The notes: a model not told the origin generated them from the sequence alone. A stretch of DNA of 64,000 nt from a virus (IMGVR_UViG_3300025122_005335:16051-80050); one strand, 5' to 3'. Counted from the first letter of the stretch, positions 1,893-58,264 are shown. Numbers and translations are program-made.

Positions 1893-3176
1893 ATGAACGC
1901 AGGGAAAAATCGTAAAAGAGATTTAGAACTTTTAAGTGAGGTGTATTCAGAAGCTATGGGTTACGCCGGTGGCCGTGGATCTGTTAATACTCAACCAGGT
2001 GCGGGTGGTACCGGAGATTACGATGATAGCACAGGGCAGATTACACAACGTGCTGAAGACCAAAACCCTTTAGAAAATCCGTTTGGAGAGAGTGAGGAGA
2101 CATACGAAGGTGAAGAAGAGAGCCAACAACGAAGAGCTGCGAGGCAATTGGAAGACGAGGGTTATACCGGAGGCAGGGCAGACAATAAAGGCAATTTGAT
2201 ATATAATAAAGGCACTTCGCATGCTCGAGTAGATACAGATGGGCAAATTAACGGCCAACCAGCGCAAGAGTTTTTTAGAGGAACCGGTACAGAAGATGCA
2301 GAAGATTTTGGAAGCCCTAATTCAAATAGATCAGGTTGGGGAAGTGATGCTTTTTCACACCCGGGTAGCAATGAGACAACTGATGAAGATGAAGGGGGAA
2401 TAATGGGTATAGATGATTGTGAAGATGAACCAGGTAAAATAGATGTAGTTATAAACCCAGCATCAGCGCACGGTATAAGAGATATTCTTAAAAATATTTT
2501 TAGTAAGGATGATGAAGATCAAGAAGATGATGATTGGATGGATGAGGAACCACCGGGGCTCAAATACGGCGTCGGTTCTGAAGAACCGGAAGGAATGAAG
2601 CATTATGATGATGCTGCACAAGCTCATAAAGCAGATGAAAGAGAAAATAGAAAAAATCTTCGCGCTCAAAATAGAATTGCTAAAAAATATGGTTTTAATC
2701 CTGACGAAAATGCTGAAGATACAGACGAATATGATACAAATCTTTTTAAACATCTTGATAAACGAAATACAGATGAGGCTGAGAAACAAGGTTTTGATCC
2801 AGGTTTAAAGAATGTTCGTCATAGTGATGAAGATGAAGTTGATCGAGAGGGAAGATATAAAGAACGTTGGGGTAAAGATCTAGACGACGAAAAAGATCGC
2901 GAAGGTAGTTCAAACGCTGGTGAATATACAAACGTAGATAAAGACGAATTTTGTGGACCATCTGGTGGTGCCGCAGATGGGACATACCCTGTTAATACAA
3001 GAAAAAGAGCAGAAGCTGCTAAACGGTTAGCGCATAATGCGCCAGACCCAGATGGAATAAAAAGATGCGCTGATAGAGCATTAGCTAAAGATTCTTATTA
3101 TTCTTCTAAAGGTGATAGAGCAATGACTCAAATAACTGAATCATATGAGCAAGTTTTAAAAAATGGCTTACTATAA
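1893..3176 (+). CDS. acidic low-complexity modular protein, probable internal head protein/polyprotein
   Basis: D/E/G-rich; repeated EDAE/EDQE/ENAE-type linkers; N-terminus MNAGKNRKRDL shared with ORF 3656; late promoter. Confidence 0.6.
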   Translation: MNAGKNRKRDLELLSEVYSEAMGYAGGRGSVNTQPGAGGTGDYDDSTGQITQRAEDQNPLENPFGESEETYEGEEESQQRRAARQLEDEGYTGGRADNKGNLIYNKGTSHARVDTDGQINGQPAQEFFRGTGTEDAEDFGSPNSNRSGWGSDAFSHPGSNETTDEDEGGIMGIDDCEDEPGKIDVVINPASAHGIRDILKNIFSKDDEDQEDDDWMDEEPPGLKYGVGSEEPEGMKHYDDAAQAHKADERENRKNLRAQNRIAKKYGFNPDENAEDTDEYDTNLFKHLDKRNTDEAEKQGFDPGLKNVRHSDEDEVDREGRYKERWGKDLDDEKDREGSSNAGEYTNVDKDEFCGPSGGAADGTYPVNTRKRAEAAKRLAHNAPDPDGIKRCADRALAKDSYYSSKGDRAMTQITESYEQVLKNGLL

Positions 3177-3645
3177 ATCAAAAGGTGATAGAACAATGAC
3201 CGACTTATGCGAAGCATATAGTCAAATAGTCGGTGAGCGAGAAATTGTAAACGAAAGAACGATAGCATCTTATGAAGGTGGTACCGAACGTCCGGTAGTT
3301 CAAGAAGTTCTTGGTGCTTTAGCTGGTGCTGCTGCTACAGGTGCTGCTTCAGCTTTAGGTGGTAAGGCCATGGATGCTATTACAGGAAATGAAGACCAAG
3401 AAGGCCCAGTGCAAGACTTTGAAGTTGGTTCATTTGTTAAGATTGATGATAGTCAAGGCGGTGGTTCAGGTGAGATAGTTGACATTTCAACAACAGAACC
3501 GGAGATGTATTGGATAGAAACAGATGACGATTCAACAAATGTTAGAGTACATAGAGATTTTCTAACGATTTCAAAAACAATTGCCGATGAAACGCGTCCA
3601 GAAGATGAACCCGGTCAATGGACCGCCGGAAGAACAGGACTATAA
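3163..3645 (+). CDS. hypothetical late protein with a possible SH3/KOW-like C-terminal domain
   Basis: N-terminus YYKSKGDRTMTDLCEAY repeats the C-terminus of ORF 1893; FEVGSFVKI...GSGEIVDI...YWIETDD...VRVHRDFL resembles an SH3/KOW barrel. Confidence 0.55.
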   Translation: MAYYKSKGDRTMTDLCEAYSQIVGEREIVNERTIASYEGGTERPVVQEVLGALAGAAATGAASALGGKAMDAITGNEDQEGPVQDFEVGSFVKIDDSQGGGSGEIVDISTTEPEMYWIETDDDSTNVRVHRDFLTISKTIADETRPEDEPGQWTAGRTGL

Positions 3646-3648
3646 ATA
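3641..3648 (+). promoter_or_regulatory. late promoter TATAAATA
   Basis: exact T4 late consensus 7 nt upstream of ATG 3656. Confidence 0.8.
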
Positions 3649-3655
3649 AAATTTT

Positions 3656-4756
3656 ATGAACGCAGGAAAAAATAGAAAAAGAGACCTAACTCAAATAGAA
3701 GAGGCTTATGAGGCTGTTGTAGGTAACCCCCCTGGTAAAGCTGCACACAAGCAGCAACTTAAGCCGGGTAAACCTATTAACAGAACATATGAACGCGCCG
3801 GTAAAAAAGTTAAGGTAAAGGGTGGTAACACTGACATACCTGCTGAAAAACCGGATGGTTATCAAGGATTTGTCCATGACAACTCAGGACCTAACGGTGC
3901 AGACAATTTTAAAAGCACAGAATTAGATCCCGACAACCCAAAAGTTAAGTTAGATAACGAGTATGATGTTACAGAGTTATCAGATGAAGGTGCTGATCTT
4001 TATTTTAAGTCTGAAAATGAAAAAATTAACAAAGAGAGTATAAATACTAATATGGCTAAGAAAAGATCTATTTTTGACCGTTTATACGAAGAAGTTATTG
4101 ATGATGAGCAGATCGATGCTGTAGAATTAGGTATTGATACAGATGTTGTTGATGATGTTGACGTTGAAGACGAAGACACAGTTACTATAACAATTCCGAA
4201 AGAACTTGCACATCATTTACATGACGCATTAATGGACGTTATGGACGCTGCTGATGATATCGAAGATGTCGAGGATGACCTCGGTGACGAAGATGATTGG
4301 GACGGCGATGAGGATGCAGAAGAAACTGCGAATCAGAAGACCTATGGTGGTAACAAGGGTGATGATCCACGACACTTTGATCGTAAAACAGGTCGTAAGA
4401 CCCAAGATAAAGATTACGAGGGTGAAGAGGAAGAAGAAAATTTCAATTACTTTGGTGAAGAGATCGAAGCCGAGATTCTTGGAACACCTTTAGTCAATCA
4501 GAAGGAAGGTAACCCAACACCAGTAACTGGTAGCGCCAACGTTGTTCACACTCAGTATACATCCAAAGTCGGAAGTAAAGAGGGTGACGGCAAAAGCGGT
4601 ATTAAATTAGATCCTGAAGGTACTGATGAAGGAACACCTTTAGTTAACCAGAAGAAGGGTAACGCAATGTCAGTAAAAGGAAAATCTAATGTTGTTAAGA
4701 GCAAGATTAAGGGTGGCGGTAAAGGCGACCAAGAGTTCTTTCAGAAGAACAGCTAA
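3656..4756 (+). CDS. acidic modular protein, probable prohead core/internal head protein
   Basis: N-terminus shared with ORF 1893, very acidic centre, duplicated GTPLVNQKxGN repeat, late promoter, followed by a terminator. Confidence 0.6.
   Translation: MNAGKNRKRDLTQIEEAYEAVVGNPPGKAAHKQQLKPGKPINRTYERAGKKVKVKGGNTDIPAEKPDGYQGFVHDNSGPNGADNFKSTELDPDNPKVKLDNEYDVTELSDEGADLYFKSENEKINKESINTNMAKKRSIFDRLYEEVIDDEQIDAVELGIDTDVVDDVDVEDEDTVTITIPKELAHHLHDALMDVMDAADDIEDVEDDLGDEDDWDGDEDAEETANQKTYGGNKGDDPRHFDRKTGRKTQDKDYEGEEEEENFNYFGEEIEAEILGTPLVNQKEGNPTPVTGSANVVHTQYTSKVGSKEGDGKSGIKLDPEGTDEGTPLVNQKKGNAMSVKGKSNVVKSKIKGGGKGDQEFFQKNS
4039..4046 (+). promoter_or_regulatory. internal late promoter TATAAATA with in-frame ATG at 4052
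   Basis: exact consensus, 5 nt spacer, ATG in frame with 3656. Confidence 0.65.
4481..4663 (+). repeat. imperfect direct repeat (ggaacacctttagtYaaYcagaag...ggtaac) at 4481 and 4631 encoding GTPLVNQKxGN
   Basis: visible at DNA and protein level, 150 nt apart. Confidence 0.85.
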
Positions 4757-4775
4757 TAAAAAATAGATATATTCT

Positions 4776-4801
4776 AAAGCCCCCGAAGGGGGCTTTTTTT
4801 T
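4776..4801 (+). terminator. intrinsic terminator
   Basis: aaagccccc-gaa-gggggcttt hairpin followed by a T run. Confidence 0.9.
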
Positions 4802-4815
4802 GCTTAAATATTAAC

Positions 4816-5232
4816 GTGAGCTTTGTTAAGTTTTTTACTGAAGGTGATGTTTCGAATTTTTGGTCACGAAAACCTAATACTGTGCGGAAATCCCCGGAGT
4901 GGTATCATCGAAATCGATATAATCTTGCTTCTACACAAAGTAGAGAACAGAAAGACGTGGTAGATGACCCAGCTAATAGAAAACATGCTCGAACAGTACC
5001 CGAATACAAGACAGAAAACATGAGTTTACCGGATGCCTATAAAGCTATAAAGAGTCAAGGTGGTCCAAAATCGATTCCAATAGGGTATTCAAATGTACGT
5101 CAATTAATGCAAAGATTTGGTATAAATCCCAGAAAGGTTATGGTTGGTAAGCCTGTGAGATTAAAAAATACAGGTGTTGCAATTGATTATAGACCAAACA
5201 ATACGTTTCATTTAGTAAGAACAGGAAGATAA
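4816..5232 (+). CDS. hypothetical basic late protein with capsid-targeting-like N-terminus (MSFVKFFTE)
   Basis: GTG start 5 nt after TAAATA (4805-4810). Confidence 0.6.
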   Translation: MSFVKFFTEGDVSNFWSRKPNTVRKSPEWYHRNRYNLASTQSREQKDVVDDPANRKHARTVPEYKTENMSLPDAYKAIKSQGGPKSIPIGYSNVRQLMQRFGINPRKVMVGKPVRLKNTGVAIDYRPNNTFHLVRTGR

Positions 5233-7456: not shown

Positions 7457-7462
7457 GTAATT

Positions 7463-7490: not shown

Positions 7491-7849
7491 CTTTGTTGAT
7501 CAATGTTTCTTGTGTAACCAGCTTCTTTTCCGAGCTTACTTATATACTGTCTAGACACCCCTAAATCTCTTGCAATATCAGTATATTTTTCACCTGATTC
7601 AATTCTTCTCATTATATTCTCGATTTTTTCTGGATTAACTGCACCCGGGCGTCGACCTCTTGGGTGGGTAACACCCTGGGAATCTGCTATTTTTTTGACA
7701 AGCCATGGTGATAAAAAGAAATCATTAGCTATTTTAGCAAATGTATCTCCACCAGCAATTCTAACATTAATAGCTTTTATTAAATCAGGTGACAATTTTT
7801 TTGAACCTAGCGGTCGTGCCATCTCATTAAAGTAAGTTACAAATGACAT
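7487..7849 (-). CDS. tandem helix-turn-helix DNA-binding protein with capsid-targeting-like N-terminus
   Basis: GDTFAKIANDFFLSPWLVKKI and GEKYTDIARDLGVSRQYISKL; N-terminus MSFVTYFNE. Confidence 0.8.
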   Translation of the reverse strand: MSFVTYFNEMARPLGSKKLSPDLIKAINVRIAGGDTFAKIANDFFLSPWLVKKIADSQGVTHPRGRRPGAVNPEKIENIMRRIESGEKYTDIARDLGVSRQYISKLGKEAGYTRNIDQQS

Positions 7850-8328
7850 TACTTAGGTAACTTGTTTATTGCTTGAGAACCACCAGCGTCTGGTGGAGCA
7901 GTTGGTGCACCAGTACTATTATCGTCTATTTCGGGACCTTCACTTTGATAAGGTTTCCTTTGAACTATAACATCTAAATTATTGGTCATAGACTCAATAA
8001 TATTTTTTATTTTTTTACATTTTTTAATAAACCCATCTAAACTTGCTGCAGCATTTTCGCTTTCAAAAACAACAGGATTTTGTTTTGTTTGCATTGCTTT
8101 TGCTTGCACGTTATCAGCAGCTAGATATAACCCGCCAAGATCTTCAACTATATGAGTTAAAGGAAAGGGTAACTGTAAGGGAGCTCTATCATTTTCATTT
8201 CTACCAGATGCTTGTAATAAATCTGCTACCGTGACATGAGAGGCTTTTTGTTCTCGAGTAGCAATACCTCTCACCCACTTATTATACATTTTTATTTGAT
8301 CTTCTTCTAAAAGTTTTTTACTACCCAT
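7849..8328 (-). CDS. hypothetical late protein
   Basis: TAAATA at 8334-8339 on the minus strand; N-terminus MGSKKLLEE. Confidence 0.6.
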   Translation of the reverse strand: MGSKKLLEEDQIKMYNKWVRGIATREQKASHVTVADLLQASGRNENDRAPLQLPFPLTHIVEDLGGLYLAADNVQAKAMQTKQNPVVFESENAAASLDGFIKKCKKIKNIIESMTNNLDVIVQRKPYQSEGPEIDDNSTGAPTAPPDAGGSQAINKLPK

Positions 8329-8360: not shown

Positions 8361-8792
8361 ATGAGCTTTTTCGGTAAACATTTTGTTAGATTGTTAGAAC
8401 AAGAAGAAATAGAAGATACAGTAACAATTACTGACACAGAAGCTATGGAGACACAGTTAGATCCAGGCACAGAAGTAACAGATTATGAAGTGGATGCACC
8501 AACTCTAGACGGTGGTGAAATTACAGCACAGAGTAATGCAGCACAAGCCAGAGAATTAGTAGACATCATTGCCGCTATGGAAGAATTTACTAATTATCTT
8601 AATAGTGAAAAAGCTGATTCAGTTCAATCTCTCCTTCATGCAGCTAGTTGTGATACGCTTTTTAATAAAATTGCAGGTGCTGAAACTAAGAAGATAGCGA
8701 GAGTTGCAATGGAGTTAAGTTCACTAATTGAAAATCTTAAAGGGTATCTACATACTGTAGAAACAGGTCCAGGTGCCGGGCAAGCGCGTTAA
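8361..8792 (+). CDS. hypothetical acidic late protein
   Basis: TAAATA 8350-8355, 5 nt before ATG; N-terminus MSFFGKHFVRLLEQ. Confidence 0.6.
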   Translation: MSFFGKHFVRLLEQEEIEDTVTITDTEAMETQLDPGTEVTDYEVDAPTLDGGEITAQSNAAQARELVDIIAAMEEFTNYLNSEKADSVQSLLHAASCDTLFNKIAGAETKKIARVAMELSSLIENLKGYLHTVETGPGAGQAR

Positions 8793-9843: not shown

Positions 9844-10050
9844 TTACTTCTGCACGTCTTCAATGGAAACAATTCCTTTTCTTATAAATGCACCACTTGC
9901 TGGGTCAATCCAATGAGCTTCTGTATAAATTTTACCGCCTCTTTCTATTTTATGAATACGAGGAAAACACGACTCACCAGATATTGGGCTAGCGATTGGA
10001 ACTGCTCTAACCATTTGCATATTGTTAATGTTGTTATTCTGTTGTAGCAT
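9844..10050 (-). CDS. hypothetical small protein
   Basis: ORF overlapping the RNase H stop; TAAATA upstream within rnh. Confidence 0.55.
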   Translation of the reverse strand: MLQQNNNINNMQMVRAVPIASPISGESCFPRIHKIERGGKIYTEAHWIDPASGAFIRKGIVSIEDVQK

Positions 10051-10975
10051 ATCTGTTGTTTATATATTTATTATTTAATAGATTGACTTTATCTACAAGT
10101 TCTTGGATAATATCAGTTGAAAAGAATGAGTTAACCCATTTGTCTCTATTTGTTACTATACCGTCGATTCCCAATTCACAACACCTATTAAAGAATTTGG
10201 TTGAATCTTTTTTTGGCATACCCTGTTGTAATTGTTCCTTGTATGAAATTTCTTCTTCTTTATAGTATCTCCACCCATATTGTAGATCCATCATGTCATG
10301 ATTGTGTTCGTAGACTTTAAAGTTTTCTTTTGTTAAAATTTGATCCCAATGTGGTGTCTTGTTGTATTTTTCCAATAACTTTATCGCTCTTTTATGACCT
10401 ATTTTTGGTAATCCTTTTATATTATCACTGTTATCACCAATAATAGATTTGTAATCTAAAAAGTTTTGAAGAGATACCCCTTTAGTGAAGTTCTCAAAGT
10501 TTTCTTTTGTTATTGCTGCTTTTTGGATAGGGTTAAAAACCAGAGTATCCTGATCGATAAGTTGATACAAATCTTTGTCTACTGTAATAATTTGTTTCTT
10601 TCCATGTAACACTTCTGTTAACCAACTTATAACGTCATCAGCTTCTAACCTATATGGGTATATACTCTTTATTCCTAAGTGATCCATTAATTCTCTCAAC
10701 GTTTCATCATTTTTGTGAGCTTCTTTAGCTACTTCACCGTCTCTATTGCTCTTATAGTTTCCTTTTGATGTGGTTTTTCTGAAATTAGATGAAGGATATA
10801 GGAGTTTTTTATCCCATGCTGCATATATATGATCAGGTTTAAATTTATCTACATAAGATTTGACTGATCTTAAAAACATTAAGGTGGCCATATTAATATT
10901 ACCGTCTTTTATGTTTTTGTTTACCCAGAAAATTCTATAGAGTAAATTATTTGCGTCTAGAATAAGATTTTTCAT
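10034..10975 (-). CDS. rnh: 5'-3' exonuclease / T4 RNase H (FEN family)
   Basis: LILDANN, YKSNR, LEADDVI, TVDKDLYQL, GDNSDNIKG...IGHKRA. Confidence 0.93.
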   Translation of the reverse strand: MKNLILDANNLLYRIFWVNKNIKDGNINMATLMFLRSVKSYVDKFKPDHIYAAWDKKLLYPSSNFRKTTSKGNYKSNRDGEVAKEAHKNDETLRELMDHLGIKSIYPYRLEADDVISWLTEVLHGKKQIITVDKDLYQLIDQDTLVFNPIQKAAITKENFENFTKGVSLQNFLDYKSIIGDNSDNIKGLPKIGHKRAIKLLEKYNKTPHWDQILTKENFKVYEHNHDMMDLQYGWRYYKEEEISYKEQLQQGMPKKDSTKFFNRCCELGIDGIVTNRDKWVNSFFSTDIIQELVDKVNLLNNKYINNRYATTE

Positions 10976-11168
10976 TCTTTTTACCCTTTCTATTATTAGA
11001 TTTGTTGTTACCCTTATCAGAAAGTATAAAAAGTCTTTCTTTTACCGCTTTTTTCACCTTAGTTTTAGTGTTCGTAGAAGCAAATTCATACTTCGCAAAT
11101 TTTTCAACTAATGTATCGATTTCTTTTTCGTTTTTTGCTTTGAGGATCGTGTCTCTTAACGAATTCAT
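10947..11168 (-). CDS. hypothetical basic protein
   Basis: ATG at 11168 lies 6 nt after a perfect TTGACA-N16-TATAAT promoter. Confidence 0.6.
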   Translation of the reverse strand: MNSLRDTILKAKNEKEIDTLVEKFAKYEFASTNTKTKVKKAVKERLFILSDKGNNKSNNRKGKKNEKSYSRRK

Positions 11169-20295: not shown

Positions 20296-20323
20296 AGTAT
20301 AGACTATATACTTGAATGATCAA
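20296..20323 (-). promoter_or_regulatory. early promoter TTGATC-N16-TATACT
   Basis: 7 nt upstream of the helicase ATG. Confidence 0.7.
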
Positions 20324-21386
20324 CAAGCGATTCTTGGTTGATTTGATCCCAAATCCAATCGTACGTCTGTTGTATGCCTTTAATAAGAGGATAGTGTGGT
20401 GACCAATCGAGTTTTTCTTGAATAAGTTTGTTGTCACTATTTCTGCCTCTTACTCCTAGTGGCCCTTCAATATATTTTCTACCTAATTTTTTACCGGCTA
20501 CGGTTTCTGCAGTTTCTACTAATGCGTTAATAGTCACCATTTCATCTGATCCTAAATTTACTGGACCTGACCAGTCTGACTCCATCAATTTTCTTATACC
20601 ATTAATACATTCATCTATATATAGAAAGGAACGTGTTTGTGTACCGTCACCCCATATTTCGATATCTTCGCCTTCTTTGGCTAACGCCACTTTTCTGCAA
20701 ATAGCAGCTGGAGCTTTTTCTCTACCACCTTTCCACGTACCTTTAGGACCATAAATGTTATGAAATCTAGCAATACGAACAGGTATATTGTAATTTCGTT
20801 CATATGCTAGATAGAGCCTTTCGGAAAATAACTTCTCCCAACCGTATTCGCTATCAGGTGCAGCAGGGTATGCTGAACTTTCTTCACAATTAGGATTATC
20901 AGCATCTAATTGATTGTGTTCAGGGTACATACATGCAGAACTGCTATAAAAAATCTTAGTTGTTACCTGTTCATATGGCATAACTCGAGAATCATTATAC
21001 CAGGGGGTTTTAACAAATTGGTTAAGCCGGTTGATTGCATCTAGGATATGTAAATTAATAGTTGCTGAGTTTCTCATAACGTTTGCATCATGCTCACCGG
21101 TAAAAATATACCCGGCACCACCCATATCAGCAGCTAGCTGATATATTTCATCAAATTGCCCTTGATATTGTTTCGGTACTGTACCATAATAGCTCCCTGT
21201 TCTAATACATCTTTCAACTATATCTTTTTCTGTTAAATCCCCTGTAATAAATTCATCGGCTTCTGATTTTCCGTAATCTGGGTGTTTAAGATCTACACCA
21301 CGTACCCAATAACCTTCTTTTTTAAGCCTACTTACAAGATGGTTACCAATAAACCCACCTGCTCCACATACTAAAGCTGTCTTCAT
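20304..21386 (-). CDS. NAD-dependent epimerase, GDP-mannose 3,5-epimerase-like
   Basis: GAGGFIG, LAADMGGAG, YSSSACMYP, YGWEKLFSE, RFHNIYGP, GGREKAPAA, GPLGVRGRNSDN. Confidence 0.9.
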   Translation of the reverse strand: MKTALVCGAGGFIGNHLVSRLKKEGYWVRGVDLKHPDYGKSEADEFITGDLTEKDIVERCIRTGSYYGTVPKQYQGQFDEIYQLAADMGGAGYIFTGEHDANVMRNSATINLHILDAINRLNQFVKTPWYNDSRVMPYEQVTTKIFYSSSACMYPEHNQLDADNPNCEESSAYPAAPDSEYGWEKLFSERLYLAYERNYNIPVRIARFHNIYGPKGTWKGGREKAPAAICRKVALAKEGEDIEIWGDGTQTRSFLYIDECINGIRKLMESDWSGPVNLGSDEMVTINALVETAETVAGKKLGRKYIEGPLGVRGRNSDNKLIQEKLDWSPHYPLIKGIQQTYDWIWDQINQESLVDHSSI

Positions 21387-43002: not shown

Positions 43003-43563
43003 ATGTCAATATATAAAAACGCATTTTTAAAGGCTTTGTTACTAGATGATGGTAATGTGGCTGGTTCTGGTGGTGCTTTAGGTGATTGGACACAATCTCA
43101 CTTTTCTGGAGACTTTTATGCCCCGGGTGATGCTAGAAGGCCTTTTGGTATGGGTGCAATGCAAAGAAGGGCCGGTACTAGTAAGAAGAAAAAAAAGAAA
43201 AAGAAAAAGAAGGGTAAGAAGAAAAAGTCTACAATAAAAGAATATAGAAATATTGAACCTACGGGTGATGGAGGGCAACCTCAGATTAGCCCCGAAACAC
43301 AGGAATTACTTACTATAGTAAAAGAAACTAGGACCTCTGCAGAATTTGGTCTAGCAGAATATAAAGTAGCAGAAATTTGGAACGGGTGGGGTGACGAACT
43401 TCAAAAAAAAATTAAACGTGAAATACATGCAATTAATGGACCACATATGGGAACTTCAGAGGAAGACATTCTTTTATTGCTTATACGTCTAGCTGAAAAA
43501 AAATCAGAAGATGATGAAGGGGATATTGATCCAAACGGTGGTTGGGGTGGTTTGTCCATATAA
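43003..43563 (+). CDS. hypothetical protein with poly-lysine tract
   Basis: YAPGDARRP motif then K10-G-K4; acidic C-terminus. Confidence 0.65.
   Translation: MSIYKNAFLKALLLDDGNVAGSGGALGDWTQSHFSGDFYAPGDARRPFGMGAMQRRAGTSKKKKKKKKKKGKKKKSTIKEYRNIEPTGDGGQPQISPETQELLTIVKETRTSAEFGLAEYKVAEIWNGWGDELQKKIKREIHAINGPHMGTSEEDILLLLIRLAEKKSEDDEGDIDPNGGWGGLSI
43183..43227 (+). repeat. purine-rich low-complexity tract encoding KKKKKKKKKKGKKKK
   Basis: mixed AAA/AAG codons. Confidence 0.9.
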
Positions 43564-44608: not shown

Positions 44609-45028
44609 ATGAAATTTGATCGTGCTATAGCCGAAGGGTTTTCTACATACGTAAAAGAGGATAAAGATCGAAAAGGAACCATTTCATTAAAAGATGCTGA
44701 AGAAATTAAAGACTTAGCATATGCAATATTGGGTCTTAAAGATGAATTAGGTTCTGACTATAGAGATCTAACATCAAAAGCAGCTAGAGTTTTGGTTCCT
44801 ATTGAAATGATGCTAAGATATTCAGGTGAAGAAGATGAAGAGCTGACATCTCCTGGTGGTGATACAGATAAACAAGAGCAACAAGATTTCGAATCGGTGA
44901 ATCCGGATGAATTGGCGTCTAAGTTAGCTGAAACTGATCCAGACGTTCAACAAGCAATGGATAATCAAAAGAAGGCGGTTATAGATAATATTGATCAACA
45001 TACAGCTGAAATAAAAAAGGGATTCTAA
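44609..45028 (+). CDS. hypothetical acidic late protein
   Basis: TAAATA 44597-44602; N-terminus MKFDRAIAE; EEDEE linker. Confidence 0.6.
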   Translation: MKFDRAIAEGFSTYVKEDKDRKGTISLKDAEEIKDLAYAILGLKDELGSDYRDLTSKAARVLVPIEMMLRYSGEEDEELTSPGGDTDKQEQQDFESVNPDELASKLAETDPDVQQAMDNQKKAVIDNIDQHTAEIKKGF

Positions 45029-45030
45029 TA

Positions 45031-45405
45031 ATGAAGATACATAGTAAATTTTTCACATTAATAAAAAAGAAACGCGAAGTTTTAAAAGAGCAAATGCCAA
45101 TGGCACCCCCACCTGCTGCACCTGCTGCGCCCCCCGCACCTGCAGCTCCTGGTACAGAAACCGTAACTGATACAGAAACTGTTGATATTCAAGAACCGGA
45201 ACCCGAATTTAAAGAATTAACACCTGAAGGTGAAGTAGAGTTAATTAGATTAATTAGAAAAGCATTAGTATTAGAGCCTACTGAAGGTACAATTCCCCCT
45301 AAAATTCTAGATGAAGAAATCAATGAAAATAATGGCCGGGTAATGTTAGCAAGAATGAAAGAATTTTTAAATACATATTCTGATGATCCCGATATTAACT
45401 ACTAA
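45031..45405 (+). CDS. hypothetical proline-rich late protein
   Basis: N-terminal ...VLKEQ then PPPAAPAAPPAPAAP. Confidence 0.6.
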   Translation: MKIHSKFFTLIKKKREVLKEQMPMAPPPAAPAAPPAPAAPGTETVTDTETVDIQEPEPEFKELTPEGEVELIRLIRKALVLEPTEGTIPPKILDEEINENNGRVMLARMKEFLNTYSDDPDINY

Positions 45406-46937
45406 TGAAAAAAAACAAGAAAAAGTTTAAAACATTAACTGAATTATATGGTCAGATAAATCAAAAGTTGCCGCCTCTACGGAGACAAGCTATTTTGATG
45501 AATGAATGGACAATAACAGCTTCTGACGAGGTAGGTGGGGTGGTTGATTTAGGGGATGTTGATGAAAAATTTTACAACCGGTTAAGAAAAGATATAATAA
45601 ACCATCGTGGTGGTGCAAAAGATCTTATAGATAAACTAGTTGCTGGTGGTAACTGGGCTTCAGGCATGCCTAATCGTGAATACCAATCTAAAATTCTTTT
45701 ACCGGTACATGAACTTTGCACCGGTAAAGACGATCTAGTTCAAGAGGTTGATATTGATGGTTTAAAAAATCTAATAAAGGATAAAAAATCCTTAACTGGG
45801 TTTCGTGATGATTTAATAGAAGCAATTGATAAAAATACGGCTTTTAATTTTAATAGTTCTTTAGAAGAAGCTGCTAGAACAGCATTTATAGGTGATGTGC
45901 CCGGATTAGTATCTGAATTATTTGCATTAGATTATCAACAGTCAGGTGTTTCTGTAGGGAAGGGGGAATTAGTAGCTACATTATTTTCTAATGCTGTAAA
46001 AGGAAAAAGTGGTGATTTATATATTGATGGCTTAGGTGATGTTGAGGTAAAAGGTACTAAAGGTCGTCCCGGTAAGACGGGTGGTACAGCACACAGTGCT
46101 ATGAAAGAGTTACCACGAATGCTTAAAGATAGAGGGCATGATGTATTTACTGGGAAAGAAAAACAAAAATATCTTGTTAATCTTACTAGTGCTATAAATG
46201 AATTGCGATCATATATTAAAATTCAAATAGAAAAAAACGAAGCTGAAGTGGGTAATAATCTTATAGAATTGGCAAACTATATCAAGGAGTTTACCGCCCC
46301 AGAAAATCTAGAAAACATAACATATGAAGAGTTATTTAATGGATTTAAACTTAATGCAGCAAGCAGTTTAAATTCTTCTGGGCTTACAGGCCAACAACTA
46401 AAAGCTTCACATAATAAACTAGGAAAGTTAACTAAGGCATATCAAGATTATATAAGATCAAGAGAAACAATATTAACACCTGACCAAGAATCTTATTCAT
46501 GGGGCGACATAGTTAAACAATATTTCCTCAGCGATTGGGGATTATCAAAAGATGCCTTGATTGATGGTTTTGTTGTTTTAGCTAATGAAAAAGAAGAATC
46601 TTTTAATGTAGGAGAATTAAGAGAAGCTTTAGATGTAATTTTAGATAAAGATACTCGAAAGGGTTTATTAGGACCAGCTGGTAAAAAAATTCTTTCAGCT
46701 ATTATTGGTACTATTCATTCTGTATTATATCAGAACTACGAAGATTTTAAAGTTATGTTATTGGTAAATTCTACTACACACCAAGCACTACCGTTAACTT
46801 ATGAAGGGGATAACTTAACAGAAAGAATGATTAATCATTATGATACAATTTCATCTTTAGTAGATGGTAATCGATTGAGAATTACATTATCTTTAGACTC
46901 CAGAAATAAAGGTTTAAGCTTTGAATTTATTGAGTGA
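45405..46937 (+). CDS. putative PD-(D/E)xK nuclease-domain protein
   Basis: VGKGELVATLF...SGDLYIDGLGDVEVKG = E...GD...EVK catalytic arrangement. Confidence 0.62.
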   Translation: MKKNKKKFKTLTELYGQINQKLPPLRRQAILMNEWTITASDEVGGVVDLGDVDEKFYNRLRKDIINHRGGAKDLIDKLVAGGNWASGMPNREYQSKILLPVHELCTGKDDLVQEVDIDGLKNLIKDKKSLTGFRDDLIEAIDKNTAFNFNSSLEEAARTAFIGDVPGLVSELFALDYQQSGVSVGKGELVATLFSNAVKGKSGDLYIDGLGDVEVKGTKGRPGKTGGTAHSAMKELPRMLKDRGHDVFTGKEKQKYLVNLTSAINELRSYIKIQIEKNEAEVGNNLIELANYIKEFTAPENLENITYEELFNGFKLNAASSLNSSGLTGQQLKASHNKLGKLTKAYQDYIRSRETILTPDQESYSWGDIVKQYFLSDWGLSKDALIDGFVVLANEKEESFNVGELREALDVILDKDTRKGLLGPAGKKILSAIIGTIHSVLYQNYEDFKVMLLVNSTTHQALPLTYEGDNLTERMINHYDTISSLVDGNRLRITLSLDSRNKGLSFEFIE

Positions 46938-48328
46938 TGAAATTTGAACACGAATTAATATTTGAAAAATATACTAATAGGGTATTAGTTAATGAAGGTG
47001 GTGCTGCCGGCCACATGTTACACCCTTTTGACTTACCTGATGTAACTTCAGGTGATACGTTGATAGACAAATTTAAAGAAACTGTTCGTATTTTAGATGA
47101 TGTCGGTGGTTCAATAAAAATAGATGGTACTAACGTAAGCTTTAAATTAGTAACGGGGGACAATGGCGTTAAACAATTTGCTTTAGACAGAGGTTCCATG
47201 TCCGAGTTAGATGTAAATGGTGTAACAATAGAAAAGTTACCAGAGCGTTTTCTCCCTCAAGGTGGTACACCACATGGCATGGTTGCTGCAGGTAGAACGT
47301 TGTTAACTATTATGAACCAGTCATTACCGTATATAAGTGATGAATTAAGAAAGTTAGGATTATGGGAAGACCCTACAAAGTTTATTAATGCTGAATTTGT
47401 ACAAGGCACTACTAATGTAGTTGAGTATGATAAAGACTTTTTAGCATTTCATGGTATAAATCAATTTTTAGAAAAACACAATCGTCAAGGGGAATTAGTT
47501 CGTCCTGGTTTGGAAAGGGAACAAATTGTAGACCCTGTTACAGGTCAAGTAAAATTAGAAAAGGGGGGCTCTAAAGCTGTACCTTATAGTCAAGAAGCTT
47601 TAGATCAATTAGCTGAGCAAGTTAAACCAATAGCAAAAAATTATAATTTTGAGATTCTTACAAAAGCAACAGTAAAGAAAAAAGGTCACCCCAACTTTAA
47701 TACCCCTTTAAGTCAAAACGTATCAATAAAAATTTCGGATAAAGAAGAAGAAACCGACCCTACAACAGGCGAAACAAGAATAATAACGAATGAAGAAGTT
47801 ATAACCCAGCCTTTAAGAAAGTGGTTAGATAGTGCTGTTAACCCTAGAGATTATATGCTTACTACTACAAGTGGTAGAAAAGAAAGAGCAGTAGGTAAGA
47901 CAAATTATTTAGATGTTATTGATAGTGTTACGACCGGTAAACCACTAAACAAGATGTATATAGAACAAGATATAGAACCAGCAATAAATGGTGCTATGAT
48001 TTATCATGCAACTAAGGAACTAGGAAATGAACTATTAAACCACTACACTTCTGTTTTAGGTGATGCAAGTGCGCATGAAGGCATTGTTGTACCCACCAAC
48101 CCACCTTATAAAATTACTGGTGAATTTATCATACAAGGTATGCAAAGCAAATTTAGACAAGCTGCGCAAGCTGATGAAGACGACCAATCAGCACCTGGGA
48201 TAAATTTTGGTAAAGGTTATCAAAATGTAAATGCACAGTCTGCAAATTATGCAGCAAGTAATAAAGACCCTGGTGGTACCCCATACACACGGTATCCTGG
48301 GCCTGGTAAAGGCGTTTATCTTCAATAA
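46934..48328 (+). CDS. ATP-dependent ligase-fold nucleotidyltransferase (DUF6267-like)
   Basis: EGGAAGHMLHPFD; motif I SIKIDGTN, III NAEFV, IIIa FLAFHG, IV HEGIVV, V YKITG. Confidence 0.7.
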   Translation: MMKFEHELIFEKYTNRVLVNEGGAAGHMLHPFDLPDVTSGDTLIDKFKETVRILDDVGGSIKIDGTNVSFKLVTGDNGVKQFALDRGSMSELDVNGVTIEKLPERFLPQGGTPHGMVAAGRTLLTIMNQSLPYISDELRKLGLWEDPTKFINAEFVQGTTNVVEYDKDFLAFHGINQFLEKHNRQGELVRPGLEREQIVDPVTGQVKLEKGGSKAVPYSQEALDQLAEQVKPIAKNYNFEILTKATVKKKGHPNFNTPLSQNVSIKISDKEEETDPTTGETRIITNEEVITQPLRKWLDSAVNPRDYMLTTTSGRKERAVGKTNYLDVIDSVTTGKPLNKMYIEQDIEPAINGAMIYHATKELGNELLNHYTSVLGDASAHEGIVVPTNPPYKITGEFIIQGMQSKFRQAAQADEDDQSAPGINFGKGYQNVNAQSANYAASNKDPGGTPYTRYPGPGKGVYLQ

Positions 48329-49629: not shown

Positions 49630-50259
49630 GTGAGAACGTTTAAACGCTATTTTTTAAATGAAGAAGACAAACCTTTTATAAAAGATAAGATTGTTAATAG
49701 AACCGTTGCGCTCGTCCCGGGGAGCTTCAAACCACCCCATAAAGGTCACTTTGAAATGTTTAAACATTATGCAAGAAATGCTGATGAAGTATATGTTGTG
49801 ATCAGTGAACCTCAAAACCCAAAAAGTGTACGACGAACACCAGAAGGAAGATATATACCTGCAGAAATAGCACAGCAAATATTTCAAATATATGCGGAAA
49901 ATGAAGGTATTAGAAATATTCAATTTATAACCGACCCTGCACCCGTTAAGTTTGTATATGATTATTTTGCAGAAAGAACACAACCAGGGGATAAGATTAT
50001 TTTAGGTGTTGGTGGTAAAGGTGAAGACGCTGCTAGATACAAAAATGCAGCAAAATATGCACCTGAAGGGGTACAATTTGATATAGATGTTTTTCCAACC
50101 GTTGGGGGGGATGAACCACTTAGTGCATCAGATATACGAAACAAATTAGATAGTTTAACCCCTGAAGAGTTATTACCTTATATACCTGATTCTCTACGTA
50201 ATAATGAAACGGTCGTAAATACTGTTTATAATTTACTAACAACCCTTCCTACTGATTAG
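49630..50259 (+). CDS. HIGH-family cytidylyl/adenylyltransferase-like protein with capsid-targeting-like N-terminus
   Basis: PGSFKPPHKGH, ILGVG, LSASDIR; N-terminus MRTFKRYFLNE; TAAATA 49618-49623. Confidence 0.85.
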   Translation: MRTFKRYFLNEEDKPFIKDKIVNRTVALVPGSFKPPHKGHFEMFKHYARNADEVYVVISEPQNPKSVRRTPEGRYIPAEIAQQIFQIYAENEGIRNIQFITDPAPVKFVYDYFAERTQPGDKIILGVGGKGEDAARYKNAAKYAPEGVQFDIDVFPTVGGDEPLSASDIRNKLDSLTPEELLPYIPDSLRNNETVVNTVYNLLTTLPTD

Positions 50260-50986
50260 AAAGTTCTTCTTTAGTTTCAATTTCTGGGGTCGTAGGATCT
50301 GGTAGAACGTCCGGTCTTTCGACTATTTGTTCTACCTTTTTCGAAACTCCTGCCATTGACCGCTCAAAACGCTTAGCTAAAGATACCCATTCCAAGGCTT
50401 TACTTTCAACTTGACTATACTCTTTAAGTGAATTCAGGGTTCGTGCACCAGTTATCAAAGGTGTTAAAAATTGACTCTTAACAAGATACACTACAAATTT
50501 GAATATAGGCATAAAAAGCCAGCCACTATATTGTGCAACTTGTCCAGCGCGTCGACAAAAATCATCATCAATACGTTTGACATCGAAACCTGCTATATGT
50601 GATATTATCGTAGCTAAATCAATACTAGCAGCACTGTTAGGATTAAGCTGCGTGATAGCATTCCATGCTTGTTCCTCAGCGTCCCAATCTTCGTCGTCCG
50701 TCCCAATCGACCAGTCCATGCACATGAAATCTACAAGATCTTCTTTCCTTATATTGCTCGCTACACTACCAGCAACCGAAAGGATATTAACAAATTCATC
50801 TCTTATTTGATTGCACTGCTGGAGTTTTTCTTCATCTGATACTCTTTCACCTGTCGAAGTGTTATAGTCGTCTCTTAATACATTGTTTATTTTATTTGTG
50901 AATAAACCGATTAACCCTCCAGCGCGACCACCAATTGGTTGTTTATCATATGCTTCCCATATTAGTTGTGTGTCTTTATTTTTCAT
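50249..50986 (-). CDS. hypothetical late protein
   Basis: N-terminus MKNKDTQLIWEAY; second gene after late promoter 51330-51335. Confidence 0.6.
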   Translation of the reverse strand: MKNKDTQLIWEAYDKQPIGGRAGGLIGLFTNKINNVLRDDYNTSTGERVSDEEKLQQCNQIRDEFVNILSVAGSVASNIRKEDLVDFMCMDWSIGTDDEDWDAEEQAWNAITQLNPNSAASIDLATIISHIAGFDVKRIDDDFCRRAGQVAQYSGWLFMPIFKFVVYLVKSQFLTPLITGARTLNSLKEYSQVESKALEWVSLAKRFERSMAGVSKKVEQIVERPDVLPDPTTPEIETKEELSNQ

Positions 50987-50987: not shown

Positions 50988-51323
50988 CTAATTAGAAAGT
51001 TCTTCTTTGTATTTTGCTTTTTGATTAGAACAAATTGCTAATGCTCTTTTTAAAACATTATTATAATTTTCTTCGTTTTCTTCATCATCACCATCACCTT
51101 TATGTTGGGTAATAAATTTTAAAAGAGATAGTTCGTCACTAGATAAATCGTAAGGTTTACCACCTATCTCAACGGTGTGTTTTTTTTCATCTTTTTCCGA
51201 AGGCTTTAGTACTGTTAAATTTGACTGTGGGTAATCTGCAAAGTCGGCAGCTTGTGGGCCCATATTAAATGCTAATGCACCAGATTCAAAAATCTTTTGC
51301 ATCTTGAAGTCATCTGGATTCAT
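50988..51323 (-). CDS. hypothetical late protein
   Basis: TAAATA 6 nt upstream; N-terminus ...MQKIFES; DEENEE linker. Confidence 0.6.
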   Translation of the reverse strand: MNPDDFKMQKIFESGALAFNMGPQAADFADYPQSNLTVLKPSEKDEKKHTVEIGGKPYDLSSDELSLLKFITQHKGDGDDEENEENYNNVLKRALAICSNQKAKYKEELSN

Positions 51324-52076: not shown

Positions 52077-52099
52077 CTGACTCCCTAATTTTATTCTTA

Positions 52100-52884: not shown

Positions 52885-53070
52885 ATGGATACACAAAAAC
52901 AAGAAATTTTAGATACGGTTGCTTCATATATTAAAAACGTTGATCTTTATGTAGAGAAGAACAATAAATCTGCTTCAACTAGAGCTCGTAAAGCATTAGC
53001 TGATCTTGTTAAATTGGCAAGGGATGAACGTAAAAGTATATTAGAGGCAAGAAAAAGTAATGTTAAGTAA
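52885..53070 (+). CDS. histone H1-like (Hc1-family) DNA-binding protein
   Basis: NNKSASTRARKALADLVKLARDERKSI; TAAATA 52856-52861. Confidence 0.75.
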   Translation: MDTQKQEILDTVASYIKNVDLYVEKNNKSASTRARKALADLVKLARDERKSILEARKSNVK

Positions 53071-53509
53071 TTTTTCTAATATATATAGACAGTATATTAT
53101 CAATGAAATTAATGTTGATGAAGATGATATAGTTGGTTTAGTAGAACGCATTTATATTGATGGTATAGGTGATGTAGATGCAAAAATAGATTCTGGTAAT
53201 GGTGCATATAATGTAATACACGGGGATGTATTACGTAAAAGGGGTGATAATATAATTGTAAAAACCGTTAACGGTGTAAAATTAAAAAAGAAAGTTGTTG
53301 ATAAAGTTGTCATTCATATAGGATCAGGGAATAAAGAAGTAAGACCTGTTGTAAATTTTGATATAAAATTAGGTGATGAAGAATATAAAGACATACCTTT
53401 TTCTATTGCAAATAGAAGTGAAAATGAATATGGTATTTTAGTTGGTAAACAATTTCTTTCAAAAATAGATAAACTTATAGATGTTGATAAAGAGTTTGAA
53501 CAAGACTAA
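53060..53509 (+). CDS. retropepsin-like aspartic protease (RimK-associated type) with capsid-targeting-like N-terminus
   Basis: AKIDSGN, RPVV, FSIANRSENEYGILVG; N-terminus ...FSNIYRQYIINE. Confidence 0.82.
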   Translation: MLSNFSNIYRQYIINEINVDEDDIVGLVERIYIDGIGDVDAKIDSGNGAYNVIHGDVLRKRGDNIIVKTVNGVKLKKKVVDKVVIHIGSGNKEVRPVVNFDIKLGDEEYKDIPFSIANRSENEYGILVGKQFLSKIDKLIDVDKEFEQD

Positions 53510-53517
53510 GTCTTGAT

Positions 53518-54812: not shown

Positions 54813-54855
54813 GACTATATTTATTTGATAAAAAAGTAAATCAATAAATATTTAT

Positions 54856-55831: not shown

Positions 55832-55839
55832 ATAATTTA

Positions 55840-55878
55840 ATTATATTCACTTTACTTTTAGATTCAAGGTTTTAAATA
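55840..55878. promoter_or_regulatory. back-to-back early (TTGAAT-N16-TATAAT, -) and late (TAAATA, +) promoters
   Basis: attata 55840-45, attcaa 55862-67, taaata 55873-78. Confidence 0.75.
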
Positions 55879-55883
55879 TCTAG

Positions 55884-56492: not shown

Positions 56493-57577
56493 TGAAACCT
56501 ATTCTCGTTACTTGTGTATATGATGCTAGATCTGATTGGCTCGTAGGAGGTAAAGATAATGATGAAGAACTATATGAAGGTTCTTTAAGAAATTTATCAA
56601 ATTTTAAAATGCCTATGCATTTGTATTGCTGGCCTCATGAGGTGGAATTAATGACAAGCATTGTAAAACCGTATTTTGATGAATTTAAAATTATAGGTTT
56701 AGATTTATTTGAATGGCCTAGATCCTATGAAATGTTAGAAACAAAAAATAAATTTGTATGGCACAAACTTCAAGACGGTAAAGATGATGGTAAAATATAT
56801 ATGTATAGTCCTAGAAACGAGCTTTTATGTCATTGGAAACTTCAATGGTGTCTGGCAGCTAAGGAAAATGAATGGGGTTGTGATAGAGTTGTGTGGGTGG
56901 ATGCTGGTGTTACTGAATGGTGTAAAATCCCAGTATCATTAGGGGGTGCTGAATACCTTTATAGTCATAACGGTGCTTTAGCTAACCAATACCCTGATTC
57001 TCATTTTTACCCGGAAAACAAAAATAATATTTTTACTCCGAAATTCACAGAAGGGTTAAAACGAATTTGGAAAGATAAAAAATGGTTTAATCTTACTCAA
57101 GATGCGTGTAATGATAGGCTTCAAGAATTTGATTGGAATACACACGACCATTTTACTAGTACAACACTACAAAAAATAATGGGCTGGGAACAATTTGGTA
57201 CACACCTTTCAGAAGAAGATGGTGAGAAGAAACAATTTCATTTAAATTCTTCCAAAGTAAAAAATATACACAAAGAATTTGGTGCAGAATATCCGTTTTG
57301 GACAGTGGGTACTATATTTGGTGGTGAATTTGAAGAATTGGAAAATGTTATTTTACCCTTATACATGAAATTATTGGATGCATTTACCGATAATCATAGT
57401 ATACCACCTATAACCGAAGAACCTTATTATAGCGTTATAGCTGAAGAAAAGGGATATAATTTATTTTGGTTTGATACTTGGTCTCACGATAAAGAAGATG
57501 AGCCATGTTGTCACGTTGTGGGAGTAAAGCCTTTTTACACCACGGTACTTGATATTATTAATTATACAAATGATTAA
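56492..57577 (+). CDS. HtrL/WlaTC-like putative glycosyltransferase (paralog of 36857)
   Basis: LVTCVY, RNELLCHWKL, VWVDAG, SLGGAE, NNIFTP, GTIFGG, TEEP. Confidence 0.68.
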   Translation: MKPILVTCVYDARSDWLVGGKDNDEELYEGSLRNLSNFKMPMHLYCWPHEVELMTSIVKPYFDEFKIIGLDLFEWPRSYEMLETKNKFVWHKLQDGKDDGKIYMYSPRNELLCHWKLQWCLAAKENEWGCDRVVWVDAGVTEWCKIPVSLGGAEYLYSHNGALANQYPDSHFYPENKNNIFTPKFTEGLKRIWKDKKWFNLTQDACNDRLQEFDWNTHDHFTSTTLQKIMGWEQFGTHLSEEDGEKKQFHLNSSKVKNIHKEFGAEYPFWTVGTIFGGEFEELENVILPLYMKLLDAFTDNHSIPPITEEPYYSVIAEEKGYNLFWFDTWSHDKEDEPCCHVVGVKPFYTTVLDIINYTND

Positions 57578-57588
57578 ATATTAATATC

Positions 57589-58035
57589 ATGAAGAACTTT
57601 GACAGTATCTTAACCGAATGTTTAAAAAACAAAGGGTTAAAATATATCCGGTTCAAAGTAGACCCTACTTTAAACAAAGGATTCGAAATGTCGTGGAGTT
57701 ACGAAGGGTTTGTGCTACAAGAACTTACAAATGAAGCATGCGGTGGTGTACCGGGAGGTTTACCACCCATTTTAAAGGTGCTCATGCCCGGCGGACCGTT
57801 ACCTGGTATTTTTGATATTAAAAAACCTGTTTTAACACCTTCTAAACCTAAATCAGTACATATGTTTAAAAAATATATTGCTAAGAAAATGAAAGATCAA
57901 ATAAGCGGTAAAGAGTTAGAACAAATCAAAAATACCAATAGTATCGATGATATTGAGCACTATCTTAAACAGAGCGGTGTCCAAGATGGTGAACTAACAA
58001 AAATCTATAAAAAATTATTGAAACATGCCACTTAA
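57589..58035 (+). CDS. hypothetical late protein
   Basis: TAAATA 57575-57580; N-terminus [10 protein letters not shown]. Confidence 0.6.
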
Positions 58036-58264
58036 AAAAGGAAAAACAGACTCTATTATTAGTAGTAATATAAAAAAATTAAAAGGGGAAAATTATCCTC
58101 AAGACCAAGCAGTTGCTATTGCTATGAGTGAAGCTGGTAAAAAGAAACGTAAGAAAGTTAAAGAATCCAATAGCAAAATGGATAAAATAGCTAGTAAATA
58201 TGTTGATAACCGTGTTAAGTCGCATTTATCTGAAATGTATCACGAAGATGAGGATGACGTTTAG
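58025..58264 (+). CDS. small basic phage protein (MPLKKG...QAVAIA family)
   Basis: MPLKKGK...ISSNIKKL...[14 protein letters not shown]. Confidence 0.65.

Follow-up and report, generated by a model that had tools for sequence, protein, structure and literature searches.

Candidate capsid-targeting tags on unrelated late proteins of an uncultured marine T4-like phage

Introduction

The stretch of DNA analyzed here, hereafter the window, comprises the last 64 kb (bases 16051-80050) of the 80,050-bp viral contig IMGVR_UViG_3300025122_005335 from IMG/VR, and it holds late genes whose protein products begin with short peptides that resemble the capsid-targeting sequence (CTS) of phage T4. In T4, the CTS (MKTYQEFIAE) is removed by a single cut after its Glu (PMC8442874). 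Residues 4 and 7 matter most for targeting, residues 8 and 10 for processing, and an Asp at position 10 blocks processing, not targeting (PMC9026906). That diverse internal proteins of T-even phages have only the CTS in common is an established concept (PMC3012670), and the T4 proteins Alt and gp21 are processed at both their N- and C-termini (PMC9026906). An earlier note on this DNA had proposed that about 20 otherwise unrelated late proteins share such leaders, of two kinds called Type A (D-x2-[LI]-x-E-x-Y-like) and Type B (F-x2-[FYIL]-x1-3-E-like), and that these mark a payload for packaging into the head and injection. All 16 of the 16 peptides that it cited are present in the sequence, at the positions and on the strands where it had placed them.

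Results

Late genes and head-maturation genes of the lineage

The source phage is an uncultured marine T4-like myovirus that belongs to a large clade. Its contig is estimated to be 38% complete; the window has a G+C content of ~33% and contains no tRNA genes, and a megablast search of both window halves against phage records gave no match and nothing near-identical. T4-type replication and recombination genes occupy the minus strand of the window, and several late operons the plus strand. The large terminase (gp17; 112-1854, minus strand) is ~33-37% identical to those of cultured T4-like phages, e.g., Pelagibacter phage HTVC008M and rhizobiophages, and the tail sheath and tube genes are located in the 16 kb upstream of the window. 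On the contig, 107 genes were called, with starts assigned by a longest-open-reading-frame rule. Nearly all of them lack a Shine-Dalgarno sequence (for example those at 1893, 3656, 8361, 20304-21386 on the minus strand, and 28426-31020 on the minus strand), and throughout the window a TAAATA (late-type) or TATAAT element ends 5-8 nucleotides (nt) before nearly every start codon. Because promoter elements end so close to the starts and Shine-Dalgarno sequences are almost absent, the arrangement implies mRNAs that are leaderless or nearly so across the genome. Such starts suggest that the host makes no use of Shine-Dalgarno sites. Most of the tag carriers described below have a TAAATA-type late promoter motif 5-8 nt upstream or lie inside a late operon, an assignment made by motif only. 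Searches of PHROGs, Pfam, and NCBIfam gave no family for almost all of them.

The gp17 of one relative, G001, is 84% identical. This relative has a gp21-type prohead protease (Peptidase_S77; L033:4364-5044; PF03420, E = 7e-38; PHROG_207, E = 3e-61), the capsid protein gp23 (E = 8e-88), and proteins like gp13 and gp4. Its gp21 begins MSYKLLVE/T (here and below, a slash stands behind the Glu at the end of a leader), the delta region of its gp23 ends CLNE/ANNVSGG, and the protein at the scaffold position begins MDKITDILQE/K, with DILTE/D kept nearly invariant in its 496-cluster family. Among T4 sequences, gp67, gp68, gp21, gp22, gp24, an Alt-like protein, and Inh likewise carry [LI]xE at residues 6-10. 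Directly upstream of gp21 in G001, we also noted a methyltransferase (L033:3722-4342; PHROG E = 6e-28) that begins with a tag-like leader, MLLDYDELVE/KY, and that may itself be packaged.

Tagged and untagged forms of the same enzymes

The clearest view of the Type B leaders comes from enzymes. The ligase-like nucleotidyltransferase g46937 starts with a 20-residue tag (46937-46996, plus strand; MKFEHELIFEKYTNRVLVNE) that runs directly into GGAAGHM, the first residues of the conserved core of a family with more than 546 relatives. At 15-17 loci, the ligase-like protein starts MGGAAGHM and has no tag, and these untagged homologues have Shine-Dalgarno-like sequences upstream. The ~25 distinct ligase tags (MKSFKQFIINE, MKTFKNYILNE, MISFKQFVLE, and so on) all end in [LIV]-x-E right before the GG. 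A PDB sequence search with the ligase-like protein gave no match, and a tblastn search against cultured phages gave none for the ligase-like body or for g3656 (described below), the fused nucleotidyltransferase part alone being matched.

The same two states occur in an unrelated enzyme, the HIGH-motif adenylyl/cytidylyltransferase g49630, whose tag MRTFKRYFLNE (49630-49662, plus strand; GATAAATA stands 6 nt upstream of the gene) is followed by EDKP. Its family contains at least 13 untagged homologues (MEKIALLPGGFKPPHAGH) and 11 tagged variants (MTFKRFLAE/Q, MLTFKDYFLKE/Q, and others), and the NCBIfam domain begins at residue 26, past the tag. A further putative enzyme, g53060 (53060-53509, plus strand), matches models of retropepsin-like aspartic peptidases (RloA3, E = 5e-11), at scores below the curated cut-offs. 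Its 16-residue leader (MLSNFSNIYRQYIINE; 53060-53107, plus strand) is followed by Ile, the RimB/RloA-type profile begins at about residue 19, past the leader, and distant family members start MKTFKQYIQE/K, MIKFKQYFYE/K, or MQSFKLFYE/K. This is a second putative peptidase, one that is tagged and encoded within a late operon.

Tags can also be exchanged. The N-terminal module of g45405 spans ~34 residues (45405-45506, plus strand; ..FKTLTELY..LPPLRRQ..MNE, then Trp), and distant homologues keep [FW]K[ST]L.[DE][IL]Y...LPRQ, while among close orthologues the first 20 residues are the least conserved and the acidic residue is Asp in two of four. At two related loci, L161 and L163, the ligase core GGAAGHM is preceded by a module of this type (~35 residues) in place of the short tag; the ligase-like gene lies at ~10001-11137 there. 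Elsewhere (L133:9986-11773; L139:8539-12990), the ligase-like core is fused to the HIGH nucleotidyltransferase (595-637 amino acids), and a 1,483-amino-acid fusion occurs as well. Altogether, this points to active shuffling of domains and tags in the ligase cassette. By this comparison of homologues, the Type B tag is modular: it is present on some members and absent from others in two unrelated enzyme families, and it has been swapped in L161 and L163.

Further carriers of the Type B leader

Among the remaining carriers, the tag of g8361, an acidic protein of 143 amino acids, is the best candidate for a cleavable targeting peptide. It reads MSFFGKHFVRLLE followed by QEE (8361-8399, plus strand), with CATAAATA 5 nt upstream of the gene. 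All of the 29 distinct N-termini of its family, at 31-88% identity, follow M-x2-[FY]-x3-F-x2-hydrophobic-hydrophobic-E/[QA]-[DE]-E, and M1, F8, and E13 are invariant. An AF2 model of moderate confidence (mean pLDDT 65) has a helical tag (residues 3-15), followed by a disordered acidic linker (16-24) and, further on, a helical domain (51-135). Co-folding of the scaffold family with the g8361 family, run without controls, scored 0.00 and counts neither for nor against binding.

Close by, and absent from the earlier list, g7849, in divergent orientation to g8361, encodes a 159-amino-acid protein that begins MGSKKLLEE/D (8302-8328, minus strand), with TATAAATA 5 nt upstream. Its family keeps [KR]-hydrophobic-hydrophobic-x-E/D across 24-80% identity, and the tag resembles the N-terminus of the gp21 protease of G001 itself. 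Similarly, the tag of g57589 (148 amino acids; 57589-57618, plus strand; followed by Cys; TAAATA 8 nt upstream) has the residue spacing of T4 MKTYQEFIAE and resembles the N-terminus of the scaffold-position protein, and seven of the nine members of its family are positive for the T4-derived pattern defined below.

Two of the carriers share a late operon. It starts with g44609, an acidic protein of 139 amino acids with the tag MKFDRAIAE/GF (44609-44635, plus strand; AATAAATA 6 nt upstream), whose orthologues keep MKFDxAIxEG[FY]; the corresponding leader MKFDQLINE/ is also found on nucleotidyltransferase homologues of other contigs. The second cistron, g45031, has the leader MKIHSKFFTLIKKKREVLKE (45031-45090, plus strand), then Gln and a Pro/Ala-rich linker, and its orthologues keep SKFF..LIK....VL.E/Q.

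The leader of g43003 (MSIYKNAFLKALLLDD; 43003-43050, plus strand) is followed by GNVAGSGG. The 22 members of its family are small proteins with the tag, a GNVAG-SGGALG core, and a Lys-rich tail, and the copy in the window (43003-43563, plus strand) has 186 amino acids, with an additional acidic portion at its C-terminus. Its residues 32-56 align with residues 89-113 of G001 gp23 (48% identity, E = 0.003), a stretch that corresponds to the capsid N-arm just past the predicted cleavage site.

Three leaders are weaker. The leader of g4816 (VSFVKFFTE/GD; 4816-4842, plus strand) is pattern-positive and the tag profile described below matches members of its family, which conserves F-K-x-[FY]-F. The helix-turn-helix protein g7487 (MSFVTYFNE/M; 7823-7849, minus strand) is pattern-positive too, has no diverse homologues, and is only marginally linked to g4816 (E = 0.011). 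For g50988 (..MQKIFE, then SGALAFN; 51285-51323, minus strand), neither the Type A nor the Type B profile gave a match, and its orthologues keep K-[IL]-hydrophobic-E-S-G-[AG]-LAFN.

The Type B tag across the clade

We fetched ~200 related loci, which gave 2,389 distinct proteins in 648 families, and screened their N-termini with a pattern based on the functional positions of the T4 CTS. This T4-derived pattern marked 24 of the 648 families, where 9.2 were expected (P = 3e-5), and gp21 itself was among the positives. N-termini in the clade are enriched in Lys, Leu, Phe, and Ile; upon shuffling of residues 2-16, 9.4 ± 2.9 families were positive vs. 26 observed, i.e., a 2.8-fold excess (z = 5.7). 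The clade consensus of the tag is M-K-T-F-K-Q-[FY]-hydrophobic-hydrophobic-x-E, with leader lengths from 8 to ~35 residues and [LIV] at P3. A profile trained only on the tags of the two enzyme families (ligase-like and nucleotidyltransferase) matched at least 10 further families at true N-termini, with 24 matches of at least 6 bits vs. 1 in reversed sequences. The apparent interior matches of this profile all begin at an internal Met and are start-codon miscalls of the longest-open-reading-frame rule. From these comparisons, we regard Type B as a real, transferable N-terminal tag that is present on at least 12 unrelated protein families.

The Glu at the junction is invariant in the g8361, g7849, ligase-like, and nucleotidyltransferase families. 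Since the codons of the tag vary while its residues are kept, the selection on it appears to act at the protein level. A signal at the DNA or RNA level was rejected on this codon variation, on the dependence on residue order, and on the C-terminal copy of Type A described below. We also rejected the notion that the N-terminus is the best-conserved part of each carrier, which holds only for g3163 and g44609. Among loci L121-L199, we further observed a third kind of leader, MK[LN]L[LF]E[NS]WR.[YF][LI].E, on three or more families besides a HAD-type phosphatase-like protein with the motif FDFDDT; it likewise ends in hydrophobic-x-Glu.

Comparison with T4 and with jumbo phages

As judged by their sequences, the marine Type B consensus and the T4 internal-protein leader are essentially the same. 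In the T4 record, IPI begins MKTFKEF, and IPII and IPIII begin MKTYQEFIAE. When applied to the T4 proteome, the marine tag profile ranked gp61.1 and IPI first, both at residue 1. The likeness that the earlier note had drawn to T4 capsid targeting thus held up for Type B, as a consensus (MKTFKQ[FY]..xE) that is nearly the IPI/IPII/IPIII leader, as a modular element, and as an [LIV]-x-Glu junction. The match to gp61.1, a T4 protein of 54 amino acids that is unstudied, extends beyond the leader: like the g43003 family, it has a CTS-like leader (MKTFKEFIKE/D), a VAG-SGG motif, and a Lys-rich tail, although the pairwise similarity is not significant (best E = 0.05) and the copy in the window is longer, at 186 amino acids.

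The resemblance to the T4 system lies in an N-terminal leader of 10-20 residues with nearly the same sequence and a hydrophobic-x-Glu end on otherwise unrelated proteins, in the presence of a gp21-type protease in the lineage, and in carriers that are predicted to be late from their promoter motifs. Unlike the small, basic internal proteins of T4, the cargo here would include enzymes and acidic proteins, with the HAD-type phosphatase in relatives; the phage is very distant from T4, its tags range in length from 8 to ~35 residues, and the system is predicted here from sequences. For comparison, a gp21-like protease of the jumbo phages phiKZ, 201phi2-1, and SPN3US cuts many of their head proteins after Glu (PMC5694885, PMC7411985). 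As in those phages, we find paralogues with conserved N-termini and diverged bodies (1893/3656 and 22694/50249, see below), but most propeptides of jumbo phages exceed 100 residues and have the motif [S/A/G]-x-E (PMC5694885), whereas the leaders here have 8 to ~35 residues and end in [LIV]-x-E as in T4. In the literature searched, we found no paper that links the CTS to marine T4-like phages. The mechanism itself is the known one of T4.

Type A, a terminal helix on acidic proteins

Type A behaves differently. It is found on three adjacent genes, g1893, g3163, and g3656, which lie beside the terminase and neck genes and encode acidic, low-complexity proteins that have no family assignment in PHROGs, Pfam, or NCBIfam. 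The acidic protein g1893 (427 amino acids; TATAAATA 5 nt upstream) carries one module at its N-terminus (1893-1964, plus strand; 26 bits against the Type A profile) and a second at its C-terminus (3108-3164, plus strand; SKGDRAMTQITESYEQVL). The other two carry theirs at the N-terminus, g3163 at 3163-3237 (plus strand; ..SKGDRTMTDLCEAYSQIVG) and the acidic g3656 at 3656-3727 (plus strand). The C-terminal 27 residues of g1893 and the N-terminal 27 of g3163 are duplicates (55% identity). The region 3108-3237 (plus strand) is thus a tandem duplication of the module across the 14-nt overlap of the two genes; orthologues retain both of them, and where relatives lack g3163 the C-terminal module of g1893 is still present.

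A 19-residue Type A profile was built from N-termini, with the C-terminus of g1893 outside the seed set. It nevertheless scored 12-22 bits at the C-termini of all g1893 orthologues (maximum in the reversed-sequence control, 3.1), and it also matched the N-terminus of an unrelated 332-amino-acid protein in a relative with a 60%-identical terminase. Among 987 independent proteins, the matches above the control ceiling were nine N-terminal and three C-terminal, with none internal. Leave-one-family-out searches linked the N-terminus of g3163 to the N-termini of g1893 and g3656 (E = 0.003) and to the C-terminus of g1893 (E = 1e-5). They did not link these to g22694 and g50249, and a single Type A family comprising all of them was therefore rejected. 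A PIP-box or clamp-binding motif was dropped as an explanation, because its register differs from member to member.

The conserved protein g3656, a neighbor of the terminase in the whole clade, forms 68 clusters in marine metagenomes, with only unnamed viral clusters in the ESM Atlas. The sequence that had been listed as a protein start at 4052 turned out to be internal to it: it is SIFDRLYEEV (4067-4096, plus strand), whose F, D, L, E, and V do not vary among 23 diverse homologues and which could represent an internal L-x-E site of the sort that T4 core proteins have. Overall, Type A looks like a separate terminal amphipathic helix of ~19 residues, a docking helix rather than a Glu-dependent site. 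Its occurrence at protein ends only has a counterpart in T4 Alt and gp21, whose two termini are both processed (PMC9026906), just as g1893 has the module at both ends, and the strongly acidic, low-complexity g1893 and g3656 recall T4 gp67 (MEGLIE/A, then a poly-Asp/Glu tail). Unlike T4 Alt, gp67, and gp68, however, the Type A carriers have no sequence homology to these proteins and no ADP-ribosyltransferase domain, and, unlike at the sites in these T4 proteins, the Glu of the module is not conserved in distant homologues.

The two peptides that stand apart from this group are MKDQDTQFLYE, followed by SYQ, on g22694 (22694-22750, plus strand) and MKNKDTQLIWE, followed by AYD, on g50249 (50930-50986, minus strand). 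The two proteins share their first ~60 residues. An orthologue of g22694 is kept in L039, and L133 has a similar leader (MDKDSNLIYENY). Because g50249 is absent from relatives at 57-62% identity, it is a variable gene, and the ESM Atlas gave nothing usable for it. The late gene g22694 stands by itself within a group of DNA-metabolism genes. The segment 23889-28433 (minus strand), located among the replication genes (uvsX, gp43), contains QueC-like (SGGMDS motif), QueD-like, and carbamoyltransferase-like N-termini, which, as read from the N-terminal sequences only, suggest a 7-deazaguanine-type DNA modification.

Discussion

We somewhat favor the reading that this clade has kept the T4 head-loading system and that the Type B carriers are tagged for the prohead, cleaved, packaged, and injected. 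It builds on what is observed, i.e., a tag that is shared, modular, closed by an invariant junction Glu, and nearly identical to the T4 CTS, in a lineage with a gp21 protease; core binding, cleavage, packaging, and injection are inferred from the likeness to T4. In such a scheme, the short amphipathic N-terminal peptide, with an aromatic residue near position 4, another aromatic or a hydrophobic one three to four residues on, and then hydrophobic-x-Glu, would attach its protein to the prohead's scaffolding core. The gp21-type protease would cut after the Glu and remove the tag, and the mature protein would stay in the head and enter the host with the DNA. The credible carriers are g8361, g7849, g46937, g49630, g57589, g44609, g53060, g43003, and g45031, and the weaker ones g45405, g4816, g7487, and g50988. 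Type A, on g1893 (at both ends), g3163, and g3656, probably docks acidic, disordered proteins of the gp67/gp68 kind into the same core, where cleavage would be optional.

A number of observations weigh against this reading, and many of them would fit ordinary N-terminal amphipathic helices, each either opening a fold or mediating an interaction, together with chance motif matches, such that few or none of the proteins are packaged. In the window, [LI]xExY occurs in 10 of 107 N-termini where 1.3 are expected; once paralogues were collapsed and 27,000 comparable three-residue patterns scanned, LxExY (P = 7e-5) was not significant, and we rejected this enrichment within the window as evidence. 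In the same scan, NxLxT was found in six N-termini vs. 0.26 expected (P = 3e-7, contig-wide), which beats LxExY and is probably a multiple-testing artifact. An all-against-all comparison of N-termini gave 14 pairs vs. 5 in each control, a small excess made up mostly of paralogues. Of the 107 N-termini, 27 carry the loose form of Type B ([hydrophobic]xE at residues 8-13) vs. 17.7 expected, with the replication proteins gp43, gp32, and gp41 among the positives, and the pattern also marks a GIY-YIG endonuclease, g43578. Under the a-priori T4 rule ([LI]xE with the Glu at residues 7-20), 11 of 26 genes with their own late promoter are positive vs. 17 of 81 others, a modest enrichment (interior rate 16.5%; Fisher P = 0.04, binomial P = 0.002). 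From the window alone, the tag finding would be weak. In T4 itself, the loose pattern marks 12 of 255 proteins vs. 4.5 ± 2.1 after shuffling; this is a 2.7-fold enrichment, yet only 2-4 of the 12 are head proteins, and lysozyme, Dda, and RnlA match as well. Since so few of the T4 positives are head proteins, a motif match alone is poor evidence (~25% precise), and the motif as originally written was too loose to be specific. Moreover, in many families the whole N-terminal region is conserved, so that conservation of the motif does not discriminate, and in g45405 and g49630 the N-termini are the least conserved parts among close orthologues. We nonetheless consider such chance helices an unlikely account of the whole. 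They leave unexplained that tagged and untagged homologues share a core, that tags are swapped, that [LIV]-x-Glu falls exactly at the core boundary, and that leaders nearly identical to those of the T4 internal proteins stand on at least 12 unrelated families.

Other counterpoints concern the Glu and the missing partners. Distant members of the g3656 family retain no more than L-x2-hydrophobic-x3-Y, in which Tyr18 hardly varies, and have Lys or Ser in place of the Glu; for Type A, a cleavage signal that depends on this residue is not supported. In a subclade of g3163 the Glu is replaced by Asp, and so it is in g43003 of the window, where its relatives have Glu; Asp at this position blocks processing in T4 (PMC9026906). 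The Glu is not conserved in the g4816 family either. The portal, protease, scaffold, and capsid genes (gp20-gp23) are not on the contig, which is ~38% complete. Above all for Type A, the helices might serve docking or assembly with another partner (a hetero-oligomer from the same operon, the portal or neck, a membrane, or a host protein) and stay uncleaved. The conservation in the g3656 family of a hydrophobic face and a Tyr rather than the Glu, the position of the three carriers side by side next to terminase and neck genes, the C-terminal copy of the module, and the occasional Asp would all suit such a role. For the set as a whole we find it rather improbable, as Type B keeps an invariant Glu, [LIV] at P3, and a residue-for-residue match to the T4 CTS and co-occurs with gp21, and as Asp variants of T4 are still targeted to the head (PMC9026906), so that loss of the Glu is compatible with head targeting. 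It is very improbable, in our view, that the leaders are a feature of translation, namely A/U-rich extensions that aid initiation on leaderless mRNAs, especially before GC-rich cores such as GGAAGHM. The leaderless-type architecture throughout the window, the Shine-Dalgarno-like sequences of the untagged ligase homologues, and the richness of N-termini in Lys, Leu, Phe, and Ile speak for it. Yet the order of residues counts and not just their composition (z = 5.7), the tag residues are preserved under changing codons and their Glu does not vary, Type A also stands at a C-terminus, and T4, a Shine-Dalgarno user, has the same tag.

The case for head loading by the Type B tag rests on modularity, the invariant junction Glu, and sequence identity with the T4 leader, and not on motif matches. 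The observation of the earlier note is in this sense partly confirmed, and its interpretation partly supported. Rather than about 20 carriers, roughly 8-10 are credible. The description of the listed proteins as otherwise non-homologous fails for two pairs: g1893 and g3656 are paralogues (23% identity over 240 residues, E = 8e-8), and g22694 and g50249 are alike over their first ~60 residues.

As a possible though doubtful extension, the tag might pre-load a kit for RNA or nucleotide repair, made up of the ligase-like and HIGH nucleotidyltransferases, g45405, and, in relatives, the HAD-type phosphatase. Such a kit would be injected to counter host defenses that cleave tRNA or other RNA before the phage is expressed, and gain, loss, or swapping of the tag would switch enzymes between being made after infection and being delivered with the genome.

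If the tags work as in T4, the pairs of tagged and untagged homologues predict a mature N-terminus at GGAAGHM for the ligase-like protein, and CTS-based head loading would be an ancient trait of the T4 superfamily and not a peculiarity of T-even phages. The set of injected proteins could then be read from sequence alone in abundant uncultured marine myoviruses, and the tags would offer natural means of loading foreign proteins into the capsids of non-coli phages. Enzymes, beyond small basic internal proteins, would be delivered ready-made into the host, which bears on how these phages counter host defenses.

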